A DNA stretch of 64,000 nucleotides from Sandaracinaceae bacterium (GCA_044220955.1 JBGAQA010000002.1:64001-128000), one strand, 5' to 3'. Shown: positions 15,238 to 19,716, counted from the first letter of the stretch. The notes: generated by a model not told the origin, from the sequence alone. Made by a program: numbers and translations.

Positions 15238-15954
15238 ATGTCGTTCGCCTCGTCCTACGTCGCGTCCGTCCGCGCCTCGCTCGCGAGCCGCAAGCGCATC
15301 GCCGCGCCCGGCATCGCGCGCGTCGCCATCCCGCTCGCGACCGCCCTGTTCGGCATCGTGATCCTCGCGTACGGGCTCTCGCCTGCCGACGACGTCGACT
15401 TCCACTTCCGCGAGGAGGAGGGGATCGTCACCACGATGTCGGCGATCTCGCTGGCGATGGCGAGCGGCTTCGCGGGTGCCTGCTGGCTGATCGAGGGACG
15501 GCCTGGACACGGGCTGCGCCTCTGGTGGCTCCTGACCTGCGTGGGCTTCTTCTTCTTCGCGTGCGACGAGCTGCTCCGCTTCCACGAGCACGCCGGGACG
15601 CTCCTGCGCCACGAGGTGCTCGGCCGTCCGGAGCACCTGTTCCGCAACTGGAACGACGCGATCGTCCTGCTCTACGGCGTCGTCGCGCTCGTCGTCGTCG
15701 GGTTCTTCCTGCCGCGCGTGCTGCGGATGCCGCTGCACGTCGAGCTTCTCGGGATCGGCTTCGTCGCGTACTGCGTCCACACCGCGGTCGACCTGATGCC
15801 GCACACCGAGGGCGTGATCGGGCGCTTCATGTCGTCGATCCCGTCGAGCATCCCCGAGGAGTCGGCGAAGATGTTCGCGTCGGCGTTCTTCGCGAACGCG
15901 ATGCTCCAGGCCCTGCGGATCCTCGCGCGAGTGCCGAGCGCGGAGAAGGCCTGA
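15238..15954 (+). CDS. Multi-pass membrane protein of unknown function
   Basis: About 6 hydrophobic segments; polar motifs DELLRFHE and EESAK; 2 bp from the SGNH gene. Confidence 0.7.
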   Translation: MSFASSYVASVRASLASRKRIAAPGIARVAIPLATALFGIVILAYGLSPADDVDFHFREEEGIVTTMSAISLAMASGFAGACWLIEGRPGHGLRLWWLLTCVGFFFFACDELLRFHEHAGTLLRHEVLGRPEHLFRNWNDAIVLLYGVVALVVVGFFLPRVLRMPLHVELLGIGFVAYCVHTAVDLMPHTEGVIGRFMSSIPSSIPEESAKMFASAFFANAMLQALRILARVPSAEKA

Positions 15955-15956
15955 CG

Positions 15957-17114
15957 ATGGCGCGGCCCGCCGCGCTGAAGCGGCTCGTGCTGACGCTGAT
16001 TTCCACCGCGTTCTCGCTGGGGATCGCGGAGGCCGCCGTGCGCGTGCTCGGCGTCACGGATCCGGTGTTTCGCGACTCGGACCCGGTGCTCGGGTGGGTC
16101 CCCGCGCCAGGCGCGCACGGCTGGTGGACGCGCGAGGGGCGAGGCTACGTCGCGATCACCGACCACGGGTTTCGCGGGGTGGACCTGCCGCCGGGACGCG
16201 CGCCGAGTGGAACGCTGCGCATCGCGCTCGTCGGCGACAGCTACGTCGAGGCCCGACAGGTCGCGCTCGAGGACTCGATCGGCGCGCGCCTGCCGCGCGA
16301 GCTGGAGAGCTGCGCGCCCGGGCCGGTCGAGGTGCTGGCGTTCGGGGTCAGCGGCTACGGCACCGCGCAGGAGTACCTGCTCTTTCGCGAGCGCATCGCG
16401 CGGTACCACCCGGACGTCGTGCTGCTCGCGTTCCTCACGGGCAACGACGTCGCCGACAACCAGCCCGACGTACGCATGAACGACGACCCGAGCCCGTACT
16501 TCTCGCTCGGCCCGGGCGGCGCGCTCGTGCTCGACACGAGCTTCGCCGAGACGGAGGAGTACCGGACGCGCGCGAGCGACGCCGGCTGGCTCTGGTTCCG
16601 GCGGCACTCGCAGCTCGTGCGCGCTCTCTACGGCATCGGCGGCCACGGCAACGGCGCCGCGCGCGGGGAGCTGGGCTTGTCCGACGAGGTGTACTCACCG
16701 CCGGTGACGCCGGGATGGCAGGACGCGTGGGCGCGCACCGAGGCGATCCTCGCGCACTACGCGCGCGACGTGGAGCGCGAGGGAGGCCGCTTCGCGGTCG
16801 TCACGTTGTCCAACGCCATCCAGGTGGACCCCGAGCCAGACGCGCGGGAGCGCTATCGCGTTGCCATCCACGCGGACGACCTCGACTACCCGGACCATCG
16901 CGTCGCGGAGGCGGGCGCGCGCGACGGCTATCCGGTGCTCAACCTCGCGCCGGCGCTGCGCGCGTACGCGGAGACGCACCACGAGTGGGTGCATGGCTTC
17001 CCCAACACGACGATGGGCACGGGCCACTGGAACGAGACCGGCCACCGCGTCGGCGCCGAGGAGACGGCGCGCTGGCTCTGCGCTCGGGGCCTGGCGGCTC
17101 ACCAGAGCGAGTAG
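15957..17114 (+). CDS. Membrane-anchored SGNH/GDSL-family protein (AlgX/AlgJ/DltD/SxtL-like)
   Basis: N-terminal TM anchor; blocks VGDSY, GVSGYG, TGND, GHWNETGH. Confidence 0.85.
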   Translation: MARPAALKRLVLTLISTAFSLGIAEAAVRVLGVTDPVFRDSDPVLGWVPAPGAHGWWTREGRGYVAITDHGFRGVDLPPGRAPSGTLRIALVGDSYVEARQVALEDSIGARLPRELESCAPGPVEVLAFGVSGYGTAQEYLLFRERIARYHPDVVLLAFLTGNDVADNQPDVRMNDDPSPYFSLGPGGALVLDTSFAETEEYRTRASDAGWLWFRRHSQLVRALYGIGGHGNGAARGELGLSDEVYSPPVTPGWQDAWARTEAILAHYARDVEREGGRFAVVTLSNAIQVDPEPDARERYRVAIHADDLDYPDHRVAEAGARDGYPVLNLAPALRAYAETHHEWVHGFPNTTMGTGHWNETGHRVGAEETARWLCARGLAAHQSE

Positions 17115-17263
17115 AGGAAGGGCGTCGACGCCTGGCCGGCGAAGATCACCACGCCGAGCAGCCCGAGCACGAGCACGAGCGGGACGATCCAGTACACCTT
17201 GTTCTCGCCCGCGAAGCGCACGATGTGCCCGAGCAGCGTCCCCACGTACCGAAGCCGTCCCAT
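17099..17263 (-). CDS. DUF5989/SxtK-like small membrane peptide (54 aa)
   Basis: ENKVYWIVPLVLVLGLLGVVIF..STPFLYSLW matches my recollection of the K.WL.P...PFIY.LF pattern of this family; downstream of a carbamoyltransferase. Confidence 0.85.
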   Translation of the reverse strand: MGRLRYVGTLLGHIVRFAGENKVYWIVPLVLVLGLLGVVIFAGQASTPFLYSLW

Positions 17264-17276
17264 GCACCCAGCATAC

Positions 17277-17421
17277 GGGGTCACTCCACACCCATCCAAC
17301 CCATCGAAACGAAAGCGTTCCGGCGGCAAGATGCGCTAGACGAAAAGCGCGAAAGCGTATTGCGCATCTACCCGCCAGAGCGCCGTGATTTCGGGTAGTT
17401 GAAGGGGTGTGGAGTGACCCC
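17277..17421. repeat. 145-bp palindromic element with perfect 17-bp terminal inverted repeats (MITE/REPIN-like)
   Basis: GGGGTCACTCCACACCC at 17277-17293 and its reverse complement at 17405-17421; imperfect pairing continues inward. Confidence 0.85.
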
Positions 17422-19253
17422 TAGTCGGCGGCGAAGGTGCGCTTGAACTGGGCGCGGTTCGCGAAGCCGGGCTGCTTCTCGGCGCGCAACACGAAGGGAC
17501 CGAGCGCGAGCACGTCCATCTCGGTGCCCATGAAGCACCGGTAGGCGTCCTCGGGGGTGCACACGATCGGCTCGCCGCGGACGTTGAAGCTCGTGTTGAT
17601 CAGCATGCCGCAGCCGGTCTTCGCGGCGAACGCCGAGATCAGTGCGTGGTAGCGAGGGTTGGTCTCGCGGTGCACCGTCTGGATGCGCGCGCTGTGATCG
17701 ACGTGCGTGATCGCCGGGACGTCGCTGCGGGCGCGGTTCACCCACTCGAGCAGGTCCGCCGATCGCTCCTCGCTCGCGGCGACACGGCGCGCCGGGAGCA
17801 CGTCCGCGACGAGGAGCATGTAGGGCGAGGATCGGTCCAGCTCGAAGTAGTCGGCCGACTTCTCGGCGAGCACGCTCGGCGCGAAAGGCCGGAAGCTCTC
17901 TCGCTGCTTGATCTTCAGGTTCATGATCGACTGCATCGTGGGCGAGCGCGGGTCGCCGACGATCGAGCGGTTGCCGAGGGCGCGCGGCCCGAACTCCATC
18001 CGCCCCTGGAAGAGCCCGACGACCTTCTGGTCGGCGATGGCACCCGCGACCTCGTTCGCCCACGCGGCGTCGTCGTCGAACGCCTCGTAGACCCAGCCGC
18101 GCGCGTCGAGCAGCCACTGGATCTGCGCACGCGAGAACTCGGGGCCGAGGTAGGCGCCCTGCATCCGGTCGGTGCGCTCGTCGGCCTCACGCGCCCGCCC
18201 GCCCGCCACCCCGAAGTACGCCGCGTACGCGGCGCCGATCGCCCCGCCAGCATCCCCCGCGCCGGGCTGGATCCAGAGGTCGTCGAACGTGCCCGCCCGC
18301 AGCAAGCGCCCGTTCGCGACGCAGTTCAGCGCGACGCCGCCCGCCATGCAGAGCTTCGTCTTGCCCGTGAGCGCCCGCGCGTGCTTCGCGCTCCGCAGCA
18401 CGACCTCCTCACACACCTCTTGCACCGACCTCGCGAGATCCATCTCGCGCTTGGTGATGCGCTCCTCGGGCTTGCGCGCGCGACCGCCGAAGAGCGCAGC
18501 GAAGCGCTCGCTCGTCATCCGTTCGTCGTCGAGGTAGCCGAAGTAGCTCATGTCGAGCCGCAGCGAGCCGTCGTCCTTGAGGTCGACGAGCTTCTCGAGC
18601 ATGAGCTTGGTGTAGGTGCCCTCACCGTAGGGCGCCAGGCCCATGAGCTTGTACTCGCCGCTGTTCACCTTGAATCCAGTGAAGTACGTGACGGCGCTGT
18701 AGAGGAGGCCGAGGCTGTGCGGGAAGCGCTGCTCCTCGAGCAGCCGCAAGGAAGCGCCCTCGCCGACGCCGACGCTCGCGCAGGTCCACTCCCCGACGCC
18801 GTCGAGCGTGAGCACGGCCGCCTCGCGAAAGGGCGAGGGATAGAACGCGCTCGCCGCGTGCGAGAAGTGGTGCTCGGGGAAGCACACCTTCGGCGTCCCG
18901 CGCACTCCGAGCTTGCCGAGCGCTTCGAGGATGGTCGGCTCGATCCAGAGCTTGTCCCGCAGCCACACCGGCACCGCGTGGACGAAGTTGCGCAACCCGT
19001 GCGGCGCCGTGCCGAGCGCGGTCTCGAGGATGCGGTGGAACTTCAGGATGGGCTTGTCGTAGAAGGCCACGACGTCGAGCTCTTCGGTGCCGCCCTCCGC
19101 GAGGCAGTAGCGCACGGCGTTCTCGGGGAAGCGCTCGTCGTGCTTCACCCGCGAGAAGCGCTCCTCCTGCGCGGCGGCGACGATGCGCCCGTCCTCGACG
19201 AGGCACGCCGCGGCGTCGTGGTACCAGCAGCTGATCCCGAGCACGCGCGCCAT
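17421..19253 (-). CDS. NodU/CmcH/SxtI-family O-carbamoyltransferase
   Basis: YHDAAA, QEERFSR.KH, HHFSHAASAF, GEYKLMGLAPYG, AGGVALN, AGDAGG, EFGPRALGNRS, RESFRPFAP, NTSFN. Confidence 0.95.
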   Translation of the reverse strand: MARVLGISCWYHDAAACLVEDGRIVAAAQEERFSRVKHDERFPENAVRYCLAEGGTEELDVVAFYDKPILKFHRILETALGTAPHGLRNFVHAVPVWLRDKLWIEPTILEALGKLGVRGTPKVCFPEHHFSHAASAFYPSPFREAAVLTLDGVGEWTCASVGVGEGASLRLLEEQRFPHSLGLLYSAVTYFTGFKVNSGEYKLMGLAPYGEGTYTKLMLEKLVDLKDDGSLRLDMSYFGYLDDERMTSERFAALFGGRARKPEERITKREMDLARSVQEVCEEVVLRSAKHARALTGKTKLCMAGGVALNCVANGRLLRAGTFDDLWIQPGAGDAGGAIGAAYAAYFGVAGGRAREADERTDRMQGAYLGPEFSRAQIQWLLDARGWVYEAFDDDAAWANEVAGAIADQKVVGLFQGRMEFGPRALGNRSIVGDPRSPTMQSIMNLKIKQRESFRPFAPSVLAEKSADYFELDRSSPYMLLVADVLPARRVAASEERSADLLEWVNRARSDVPAITHVDHSARIQTVHRETNPRYHALISAFAAKTGCGMLINTSFNVRGEPIVCTPEDAYRCFMGTEMDVLALGPFVLRAEKQPGFANRAQFKRTFAAD

Positions 19254-19254
19254 G

Positions 19255-19716
19255 TCAGTACGGCTTCTCGAGATCGCGCGGCGGCCCGTGCTGCAACCAG
19301 TAGGTCTTCGCCGAGCGGTCGAGACCGCGTGCGAGCGCATCGCGCCCTCCCCGCCGGAAGAGCAGCCGGAAGGGGGCGAAGAAGAGAAAGAACACCGGCG
19401 CCAGCAAGAGCCAGGCGAGGGCCGATCCGACGAGCTCGCCGACGCGGTCGACGCCGCGGGCGAGCGCTGCGTAGCCGCGGCCTGGCGAGGCGAGCGCCAG
19501 GACGAGGGTGACGCCGCCGAGCACCGACACGAGCGCGCCGGGGAGCGCCCGCCCGAACACGAAGAAGATCGACGCCACGACGAAGGCGATCGTGGCGCGC
19601 AGGACGCCGCTCTTGCGCAGGGTACGCGCGTGCTCCCGCGCGAGCGCGACCGGATCGGCGGGCACGGCGAAGGGGGCCGCCGCTTCGGGGCGACCGCGCA
19701 CCACGGGATCGCTCAT
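19255..19716 (-). CDS. SxtJ-like membrane protein
   Basis: TM helices; FFLFFAPFRLL..DAL..TYW..LEKPY C-terminus; directly upstream of the carbamoyltransferase. Confidence 0.75.
   Translation of the reverse strand: MSDPVVRGRPEAAAPFAVPADPVALAREHARTLRKSGVLRATIAFVVASIFFVFGRALPGALVSVLGGVTLVLALASPGRGYAALARGVDRVGELVGSALAWLLLAPVFFLFFAPFRLLFRRGGRDALARGLDRSAKTYWLQHGPPRDLEKPY

Follow-up and report, generated by a model that had tools for sequence, protein, structure and literature searches.

The window analyzed here is a stretch of 64,000 nucleotides from a Sandaracinaceae bacterium (GCA_044220955.1, JBGAQA010000002.1:64001-128000), and this study concerns the genes at its positions 15,238 to 19,716, four of which (termed C, J, K, and S) we propose to form a linked set relaying carbamoyl groups. 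On the minus strand, J (19255-19716), an SxtJ-family membrane protein of 153 amino acids (aa), is followed by C (17421-19253), a 610-aa O-carbamoyltransferase of the CmcH/NodU (TobZ) type, and by K (17099-17263), a DUF5989 membrane peptide of 54 aa with the tail PFLYSLW. The gene of S (15957-17114, plus strand), a 385-aa protein of the SGNH fold, runs convergently toward K, and both genes overlap by 16 bp (17099-17114), the stop codon of the S gene thereby overlapping the codon of Tyr51 of K (17111-17113, minus strand). The initial annotation had described five genes, including a further membrane protein upstream of S, in this order and with this overlap, and all of them were found where it had placed them. 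The genome (7.5 Mb, 88% complete) contains one K, one J, one C, and one strong member of the S subfamily, the latter being the gene adjoining K, and just two out of 71,033 stop-to-stop frames in this genome end in [FYW]xYxx[FW], K among them. The grouping of C, J, K, and S at this locus exceeds chance.

Proteins encoded at the locus

C matches both domains of the CmcH/NodU family, Carbam_trans_N (PF02543, E 2.5e-89) and Carbam_trans_C (PF16861, E 6.9e-73), including their catalytic and metal motifs. As in TobZ, GdmN, and NovN-type enzymes, these comprise the metal HH and D motifs, the N-terminal catalytic His region (His12 in window C), and GPRALG; GdmN and TobZ are also its relatives in the PDB. 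Against the NodU equivalog NF041651 it scored 142.9 bits, below the curated cut-off of 1000. No hydrophobic segment is present, and C is cytoplasmic.

K matches PF19451 at 46.2 bits (cut-off 27) and is built as the initial annotation had described it, with a basic N-terminus followed by a single hydrophobic segment (23-41) and the aromatic end. S matches PF13472 at 32.6 bits, just below the cut-off of 32.9, and carries one N-terminal hydrophobic anchor (10-28) with ExxxR in front of the SGNH blocks Ser95 (GDS), Gly133, Asn163, and His357. Across 36 aligned S proteins, Ser95 and His357 show no variation. All fold matches to the S model (predicted local distance difference test, pLDDT, 87.5) are SGNH proteins, with CgnD (PDB 8a2n) as best Foldseek match (E 6e-9, template-modeling score 0.51 by query, 16% identity).

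J is labeled SxtJ on indirect grounds. The window protein itself has no direct match to PF19588, the Pfam family SxtJ, and matched a profile of neighborhood J proteins, built without window J and its five closest relatives, with 59 bits (E 1.8e-19); 20 of the 36 neighborhood J proteins scanned pass the PF19588 cut-off. An alignment of 45 J proteins has no invariant column and no invariant His, and the basic C-terminal region shows the conserved pattern P..G..R...D...[ST]YW. The model (pLDDT 86) consists of a helical hairpin and a long helix plus a tail, and its fold search returned generic helical hairpins only (Z at most 8.7), which is uninformative. Since no column is invariant across 45 rows and the fold amounts to three helices plus a tail, J is unlikely to be a catalyst and likely serves as an adaptor.

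Conservation and genomic context of the gene set

A PF19451 profile search matched 241 of 401 sampled genomes of the phylum. Among the best 150 of 376 places, 80 loci in 75 genomes were picked for genus spread, with ~8 kb taken on either side. A genome scan using one peptide gave four loci, more requiring profile searches, and these four were added to obtain 84 loci; K genes were called in 83 of them, the gene caller having missed one. The Tyr at position -4 of K is present in 83/83 locus copies, 51/51 close homologs, and 140/150 library representatives, the remaining ten having cut or run-on ends. The complete FxYxx[FW] tail is found in 81/83 loci, 51/51 close homologs, and 118/150 library representatives and is always C-terminal; like 32 of the 51 close homologs, window K ends in Trp. 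According to PMC12148441, both DltX and the PatA-type MBOATs end in the shuttle motif FXYXXF, whose Tyr is acylated and passes the group on to an SGNH serine. The tail of K matches this motif with an invariant Tyr, as the initial annotation had anticipated. The DUF5989 family itself is large, with 2,890 clusters at 50% identity and 6,295 out of 8,000 scored candidates at 90%. Eight long K-family proteins, read as candidate J-K fusions, look like wrong start calls. In a tblastn search of plasmids the window K peptide found no match; the K peptide of Sinorhizobium meliloti found 48 records.

C is encoded in 71 of the 84 K loci and J in 68 of these 71, and 11 of the 13 genomes with a lone K hold a high-scoring C of the same clade elsewhere. 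Carrier-linked C proteins share a helix insert (62-106 in window C) and the sequence VNSGEYKLM, both missing from other CmcH/NodU proteins, and most of them have a C-terminal extension ending in LD, or more generally in xD, which is likewise absent from the others. A quick maximum-likelihood analysis of 58 C proteins, rooted at the midpoint and with roughly half of the K-linked rows omitted, placed all C proteins linked to a carrier together on the same side of one branch (Shimodaira-Hasegawa-like approximate likelihood ratio test, SH-aLRT, 99). The C clade differs from known CmcH/NodU enzymes by insert, extension, and a Tyr-tailed partner, which is always present. At four loci (L139 908-3631, L144 82-2904, L051, and L073), a carrier-linked C is fused to or stands beside a class I methyltransferase; C proteins of 908 and 941 aa, considered as C-S fusions, are such methyltransferase fusions instead. 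A shortened J of 59-111 aa occurs in 14 C-J-K loci (L036, L037, L096, L097, L100, L103-L106, L108, and L110-L113), which sit inside exosortase/polysaccharide-export clusters, mostly with no adjoining SGNH gene.

The SGNH partner postulated in the initial annotation is anchored and adjoins K in the window, and its subfamily tracks K at genome level, whereas it is usually unlinked and scattered in multiple copies. Within the fetched stretches S was found in 16 of 71 C-K loci and in 0 of 13 lone-K loci; this adjacency rules out that an SGNH gene is an obligatory neighbor of C-K. For the 80 loci of the phylum, S lies within 16 kb of C-K in 13 out of 67 cases, compared with 2.5% expected from copy number. 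A subfamily profile made from 18 S proteins (genome search cut-off E at most 1e-12) detected S in 74 of 75 genomes with K, at a median of seven copies per genome and 644 matches overall, and in 7 of 55 K-negative ones, a contrast that is descriptive and not an independent-sample statistic because the genomes are kin. After dropping the 11 genomes contributing to the profile, 63 of 64 K-positive genomes still held S, and the same contrast appeared within three families, S being present in 3/3 K-positive vs 0/10 K-negative genomes (f2), 5/5 vs 0/2 (f31), and 2/2 vs 0/2 (f23). S has up to 28 paralogs per genome, and several of these adjoin glycosyltransferases of the GT-C type (PMT_2, YfhO-like).

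The initial annotation had further claimed that carrier motif and SGNH protein occur here without an MBOAT, and this was borne out. The window genome gave no PF03062 MBOAT match at its 88% completeness, and a Pfam scan of 195 nearest neighbors of the 84 K loci (two per side, one per cluster, 197 picked with two very long proteins left out) found neither an MBOAT nor a further SGNH protein. MBOATs were detected in 35 of 40 K-positive genomes, five being without one at E 1e-20, and in 26 of 40 K-negative genomes; S occurs in only one of those 26, which rules out that the S subfamily follows MBOATs. At the examined loci MBOATs end in SPFIYFQF or APFIYFQF, sharing even the Pro before the motif with K, and at L125 C-K stands beside two MBOATs, each with a tail of its own. 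Taken together, C, J, K, and S are well supported as a module across many bacteria on the grounds of families, motifs, and gene linkage.

Two further features of the window deserve separate mention. The multi-pass membrane protein of 238 aa (15238-15954, plus strand), encoded in the same direction as S and counted as part of the set in the initial annotation, has no Pfam or NCBIfam match; with a homolog in just 1 of 84 related loci, it is probably not part of the module. It carries the motifs DE..FHE, HT.VD, and EE..K and belongs with many unnamed Atlas clusters (score 0.94). Between C and K, and foreign to the conserved module, lies a 143-bp palindromic repeat (17278-17420, no strand) with 16-bp inverted arms, 59% GC, and a predicted hairpin of -89 kcal/mol. 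Its arm has 53 copies in the genome at no more than one mismatch, many full copies at 70-80% identity are dispersed, and the closest relative (L001) is devoid of it, leaving a C-K gap of 13 bp. The element resembles miniature inverted-repeat transposable elements or repetitive extragenic palindromes and may affect the expression of K.

Natural fusions and candidate soluble carriers

Fusion genes connect members of the set directly. C and J are fused at one locus (L058), and SxtJ-SGNH (J-S) fusions exist in two genomes (L125 10738-12096 and L171 3330-4595), located directly upstream of C and of a divergent K that Pfam misses. The J-S fusions came to light in genomes without a PF19451 match. Seven K-negative genomes hold S, and three of them (G061, G120, and G121) have a Tyr-tailed carrier beside C and S: in G061 a divergent K adjoins C and a J-S fusion of 453 aa, and in G120 and G121 an anchor-less S and C are accompanied by a soluble protein of 108-118 aa ending in FVYQMF or PFVYVMF. 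The S matches of the other four comprise three fusions of S with an acyltransferase-3 domain and one short esterase fragment only; Pfam confirmed the acyltransferase-3/SGNH architecture in two of the three genomes and for one such protein of G061. A search for C in 160 K-negative genomes returned 44 loci, eight of which scored at least 720 bits. Two of these eight are the soluble cassettes, two combine a J-S fusion with a divergent K (G061 and G351, same family), two have a soluble peptide of 57-59 aa, one has J at a contig end, and one has nothing within 1.5 kb. At one additional locus, a C fragment adjoins J where the contig ends. The 57-59-aa peptides (L148 3198-3374 and L149 1325-1495) end in EF[IL]YPH and directly follow C; both loci have a methyltransferase upstream, and L148 also an anchor-less SGNH gene downstream. 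In the remaining 35 CmcH/NodU loci a tailed peptide beside C was found in none and an SGNH gene within 1.5 kb in two.

Scanning metagenomes added 16 loci with a soluble carrier, for a total of 18 (L126 6563-9706, L133 6453-9675, and L189-L204), with the gene order S-C-carrier; the tail conservation in the 16 metagenome loci was selected, because the tail was one of the two search patterns. C immediately precedes the carrier in 18/18 loci (16/16 metagenome), S is directly upstream of C in 11/11 where the DNA extends (9/9 metagenome), and S is anchor-less in all five metagenome loci with a called start. The carrier (106-122 aa) has no Pfam family and no membrane segment; it contains the C-terminal motif of J as well as the Tyr tail, and its first half aligns to the J C-terminal region (hhalign 85%, E 5.8e-6). 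Judged from this alignment, it appears to unite the J docking motif and the K tail in one soluble chain. In the C tree the soluble-cassette C nests within the K-linked clade, as sister to the group holding window C (SH-aLRT 99). An Atlas search with the carrier retrieved only unnamed clusters. Downstream of it a polysaccharide-deacetylase gene is found in 11/18 loci (Pfam-checked for three), and in five related loci carbamoyl-phosphate synthase genes lie just downstream of the cassette (Pfam-checked for one). Next to one of the cassettes (L126 9706-13999) we observed a Dlt-like set consisting of an adenylation enzyme, an MBOAT without a tail, a membrane peptide of 79 aa that ends in LFLYGRF, and an SGNH protein with an anchor.

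A proposed carbamoyl relay and its alternatives

We propose that C, J, K, and S operate as a relay, in which a carbamoyl group would pass via the Tyr of K and the serine of S to a target; we consider this reading somewhat more likely than not. In an initial step, C would form carbamoyl-AMP from carbamoyl phosphate and ATP, a reaction established for TobZ-type enzymes; the basis for this step is the family membership of C. The basic C-terminal [ST]YW region of J would tether C and K to the inner membrane face, a docking role suggested by the C-J and J-S fusions and by the same motif in the soluble carrier. C would then carbamoylate Tyr51 of K to an aryl carbamate, C being the only candidate Tyr loader because an invariant catalytic His is missing from J and a membrane catalyst from the soluble cassette. 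In analogy to DltX/DltD and PatA/PatB, the tail would reach S and carbamoylate Ser95. Transfer of the carbamoyl group from aryl carbamates to serine hydrolases occurs readily, and the resulting carbamoyl-enzyme hydrolyses slowly, which would favor transfer and could also slow turnover. Finally, S would pass the group to its acceptor, with one C-J-K hub serving scattered S paralogs, each having its own target. Many C-J-K loci lie in exosortase/exopolysaccharide (EPS) clusters and several S paralogs stand beside GT-C glycosyltransferases, pointing to envelope glycans as acceptors; the target is probably a cell-envelope sugar, and the saxitoxin case suggests, by analogy, that small molecules may be accepted as well.

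Dlt, PatA-PatB, and AlgI-type systems share with the set the single-pass micro-protein, its FxYxxF end with an invariant Tyr, and an anchored SGNH protein with Ser-His (PMC12148441). In contrast, an MBOAT, DltC, and an acyl-CoA donor are missing here: a soluble carbamoyltransferase of the Kae1/YrdC type would act as loader, the transferred group would be a carbamate, and a fully soluble variant exists, with SGNH partners that are mostly unlinked and multi-copy. Because the MBOAT is missing, C-J-K-S is not a member of the MBOAT-SGNH systems, although it probably works like them. A precedent for the loading step is HypF, also of the YrdC/Kae1 type, which puts a carbamoyl group on the C-terminal residue of HypE; there, the acceptor is a C-terminal Cys, the product is dehydrated to a cyanide ligand, and neither a membrane nor an SGNH protein is known to take part. 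In the saxitoxin clusters, sxtI (1839 bp), sxtJ (405 bp), sxtK (165 bp), and sxtL, a GDSL lipase (PMC2679770, PMC2684587), look like the same quartet: the four gene types carry consecutive accessions and SxtK has 54 aa like K, the likeness being one of size, order, and family names only. No other saxitoxin-type genes flank the window module, and no protein named SxtK is among the 120 K-family members listed. SxtJ and SxtK are given as unknown in the cluster descriptions, and the parts of a 2025 review and a 2026 preprint available say of SxtI, SxtJ, and SxtK only that they act together. Lyngbya wollei has a truncated sxtI and no sxtL (PMC3037375), a loss that fits a relay and a decarbamoylase alike.

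The initial annotation had placed the relay across the membrane. The C-J-K linkage, the J-S fusions, and the tracking of K by S support its interpretation in part; the crossing is not intrinsic to the relay, because a cassette without membrane segments exists. For the anchored version, the C-J fusion would put the start of J inside; the J-S fusion, in which a basic linker leads into the anchor of S itself, would put the end of J inside and the S domain outside; and the basic residues before the single helix of K predict its tail outside. The hydrophobic tail of 13 residues would have to reach both C inside and S outside and would cross at the J/K/C site; a flip site thinned by J is our guess for this, the weakest step of the scheme. 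The full picture is an MBOAT-free export route with a carbamate on the Tyr of K, crossing at a J-shaped site, a hub feeding outward-facing SGNH carbamoyltransferases, and a derived soluble cassette doing the same chemistry in the cytoplasm; we put it forward tentatively, as possible but short of probable.

Several observations weigh against the relay. No channel-forming partner is evident for a tail placed outside and a C placed inside, J having only few helices. Window S reads GTGH and has no Asp three residues before the catalytic His; among the 36 aligned S proteins, 14 have an Asp at -3 from this His and 15 have one at -2. In 55 of 71 C-K loci no SGNH gene lies within ~8 kb, including nearly all of the exosortase/EPS ones, and one genome (G235, 96% complete) contains C-J-K with no S even at E 1e-4. 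The kinship of the genomes behind the K-S association and the tail-based selection of the metagenome cassettes belong here as well. SxtL has been proposed as a decarbamoylase, a proposal only (PMC2679770, PMC3037375), and CgnD from crocagin biosynthesis is reported as a slow leader-peptide hydrolase (PMC10070186). The crocagin cluster resembles the module in encoding, besides CgnD with its fold match to S, a carbamoyltransferase, CgnI; in related clusters a glycosyltransferase takes the place of CgnI (PMC10070186). The slow hydrolysis by CgnD might be a side activity. More generally, the relay is built from families, motifs, linkage, and fusions, and its chemistry is inferred from these.

An alternative sees J and K as structural subunits, anchoring and activating a C that acts directly at the inner membrane face on a lipid-linked sugar or small molecule, the tail merely docking and S removing or editing the carbamoyl group as proposed for SxtL. 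Known CmcH/NodU enzymes act directly on small-molecule hydroxyl acceptors, most C-J-K loci have no adjoining S, and a decarbamoylase would co-occur with C too; the slow hydrolysis by CgnD in vitro and the reviews, with SxtI acting together with SxtJ and SxtK and SxtL as hydrolase, add to this. However, the membrane-free carrier keeps its Tyr tail, and the tail is therefore not for anchoring. The J-S fusion and the invariant S-C-carrier order speak more for a forward pathway than for an eraser, S-type domains also accompany MBOAT tails and acyltransferase-3 domains, two known Tyr donors, and up to 28 S paralogs per genome beside GT-C glycosyltransferases are many for an eraser, so that we regard this explanation as unlikely. 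Rather improbable, in our view, is a relay taking place entirely in the cytoplasm, with the tail of K folding into the inner leaflet and S being loaded there or acting on lipid-linked precursors. It would make a crossing unnecessary, the short tail is hydrophobic, and S of the soluble cassette, whose C is sister to the window lineage, has neither anchor nor signal peptide. Yet anchored S proteins have basic residues before their lone N-terminal helix, which predicts an outward domain, a basic linker precedes the S anchor in the J-S fusion, and S paralogs adjoin outward-facing glycosyltransferase families (PMT_2, YfhO-like).

The invariant Tyr could also have another function: K might complete the C active site or act as a sensor, and S might be unrelated or use another ester as substrate. 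Invariant aromatic tails can serve purely for binding; it would then be by chance that position and spacing agree exactly with a proven acyl-carrier motif and that an SGNH partner is present, which makes this account very improbable. Hardly credible to us is that K is an ordinary shuttle of the DltX kind, receiving its load from an MBOAT of another locus, with an incidental link to C. Although most K-positive genomes do hold an MBOAT, L125 has C-K beside two of them, and 13 of 84 K loci have no C nearby, the window genome (88% complete) and, at E 1e-20, five of the 40 K-positive genomes gave no MBOAT match, the MBOATs at L125 bring their own tails, none was found among the 195 neighbors, and C in 71 of 84 K loci forms a dedicated clade.

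For the favored relay, S. meliloti offers an accessible copy of the quartet on pSymB (L205 9628-13830), corresponding by coordinates in the supplement of PMC7268258 to SM_b20469 (S), SM_b20470 (J), SM_b20471 (K), and SM_b20472 (C) of strain 1021 and located ~6 kb from a glycosyltransferase/GH26/DUF995 operon. Transposon sequencing (TnSeq) data in that source classify all four genes as non-essential in LB, and in nodules the counts against expectation are not depleted (C 59/44.6, K 5/6.4, J 4/6.9, S 26/26.5), thus giving no functional support and no clear nodule defect in the portion available. SM_b20472, the C protein, is counted there among the symbiosis genes, named as an ornithine carbamoyltransferase and called arcB2 (PMC7268258); this naming finds no support in its family, the protein being of the CmcH/NodU type as judged by its sequence.

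In the literature searched, with most subscription papers outside its reach, we found no earlier proposal of a carbamoyl relay, no paper on DUF5989, and no mention of SGNH proteins in the papers found on SxtJ and SxtK; the available text of the PatAB paper (PMC12148441) makes no mention of carbamoyl. New here are the natural J-S fusions and the soluble S-C-carrier cassette. If the relay is true, the Tyr-shuttle principle, linked until now to MBOAT and acyltransferase-3 proteins, would gain a new loader and a new chemical group, raising the question of how a peptide tail moves its cargo over the membrane without a channel enzyme. DUF5989/SxtK would take the part of a carrier and SxtJ that of an adaptor, and proteins of the SxtL type would be transferases rather than decarbamoylases, which bears on a gap as old as the description of the saxitoxin cluster. 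Direct tests of the relay are possible with the soluble cassette of three genes and with the S. meliloti 1021 copy. It would provide functions for the very large DUF5989 family, for SxtJ, and for hundreds of orphan SGNH paralogs, and it would hint at an unrecognized class of carbamoylated envelope glycans.

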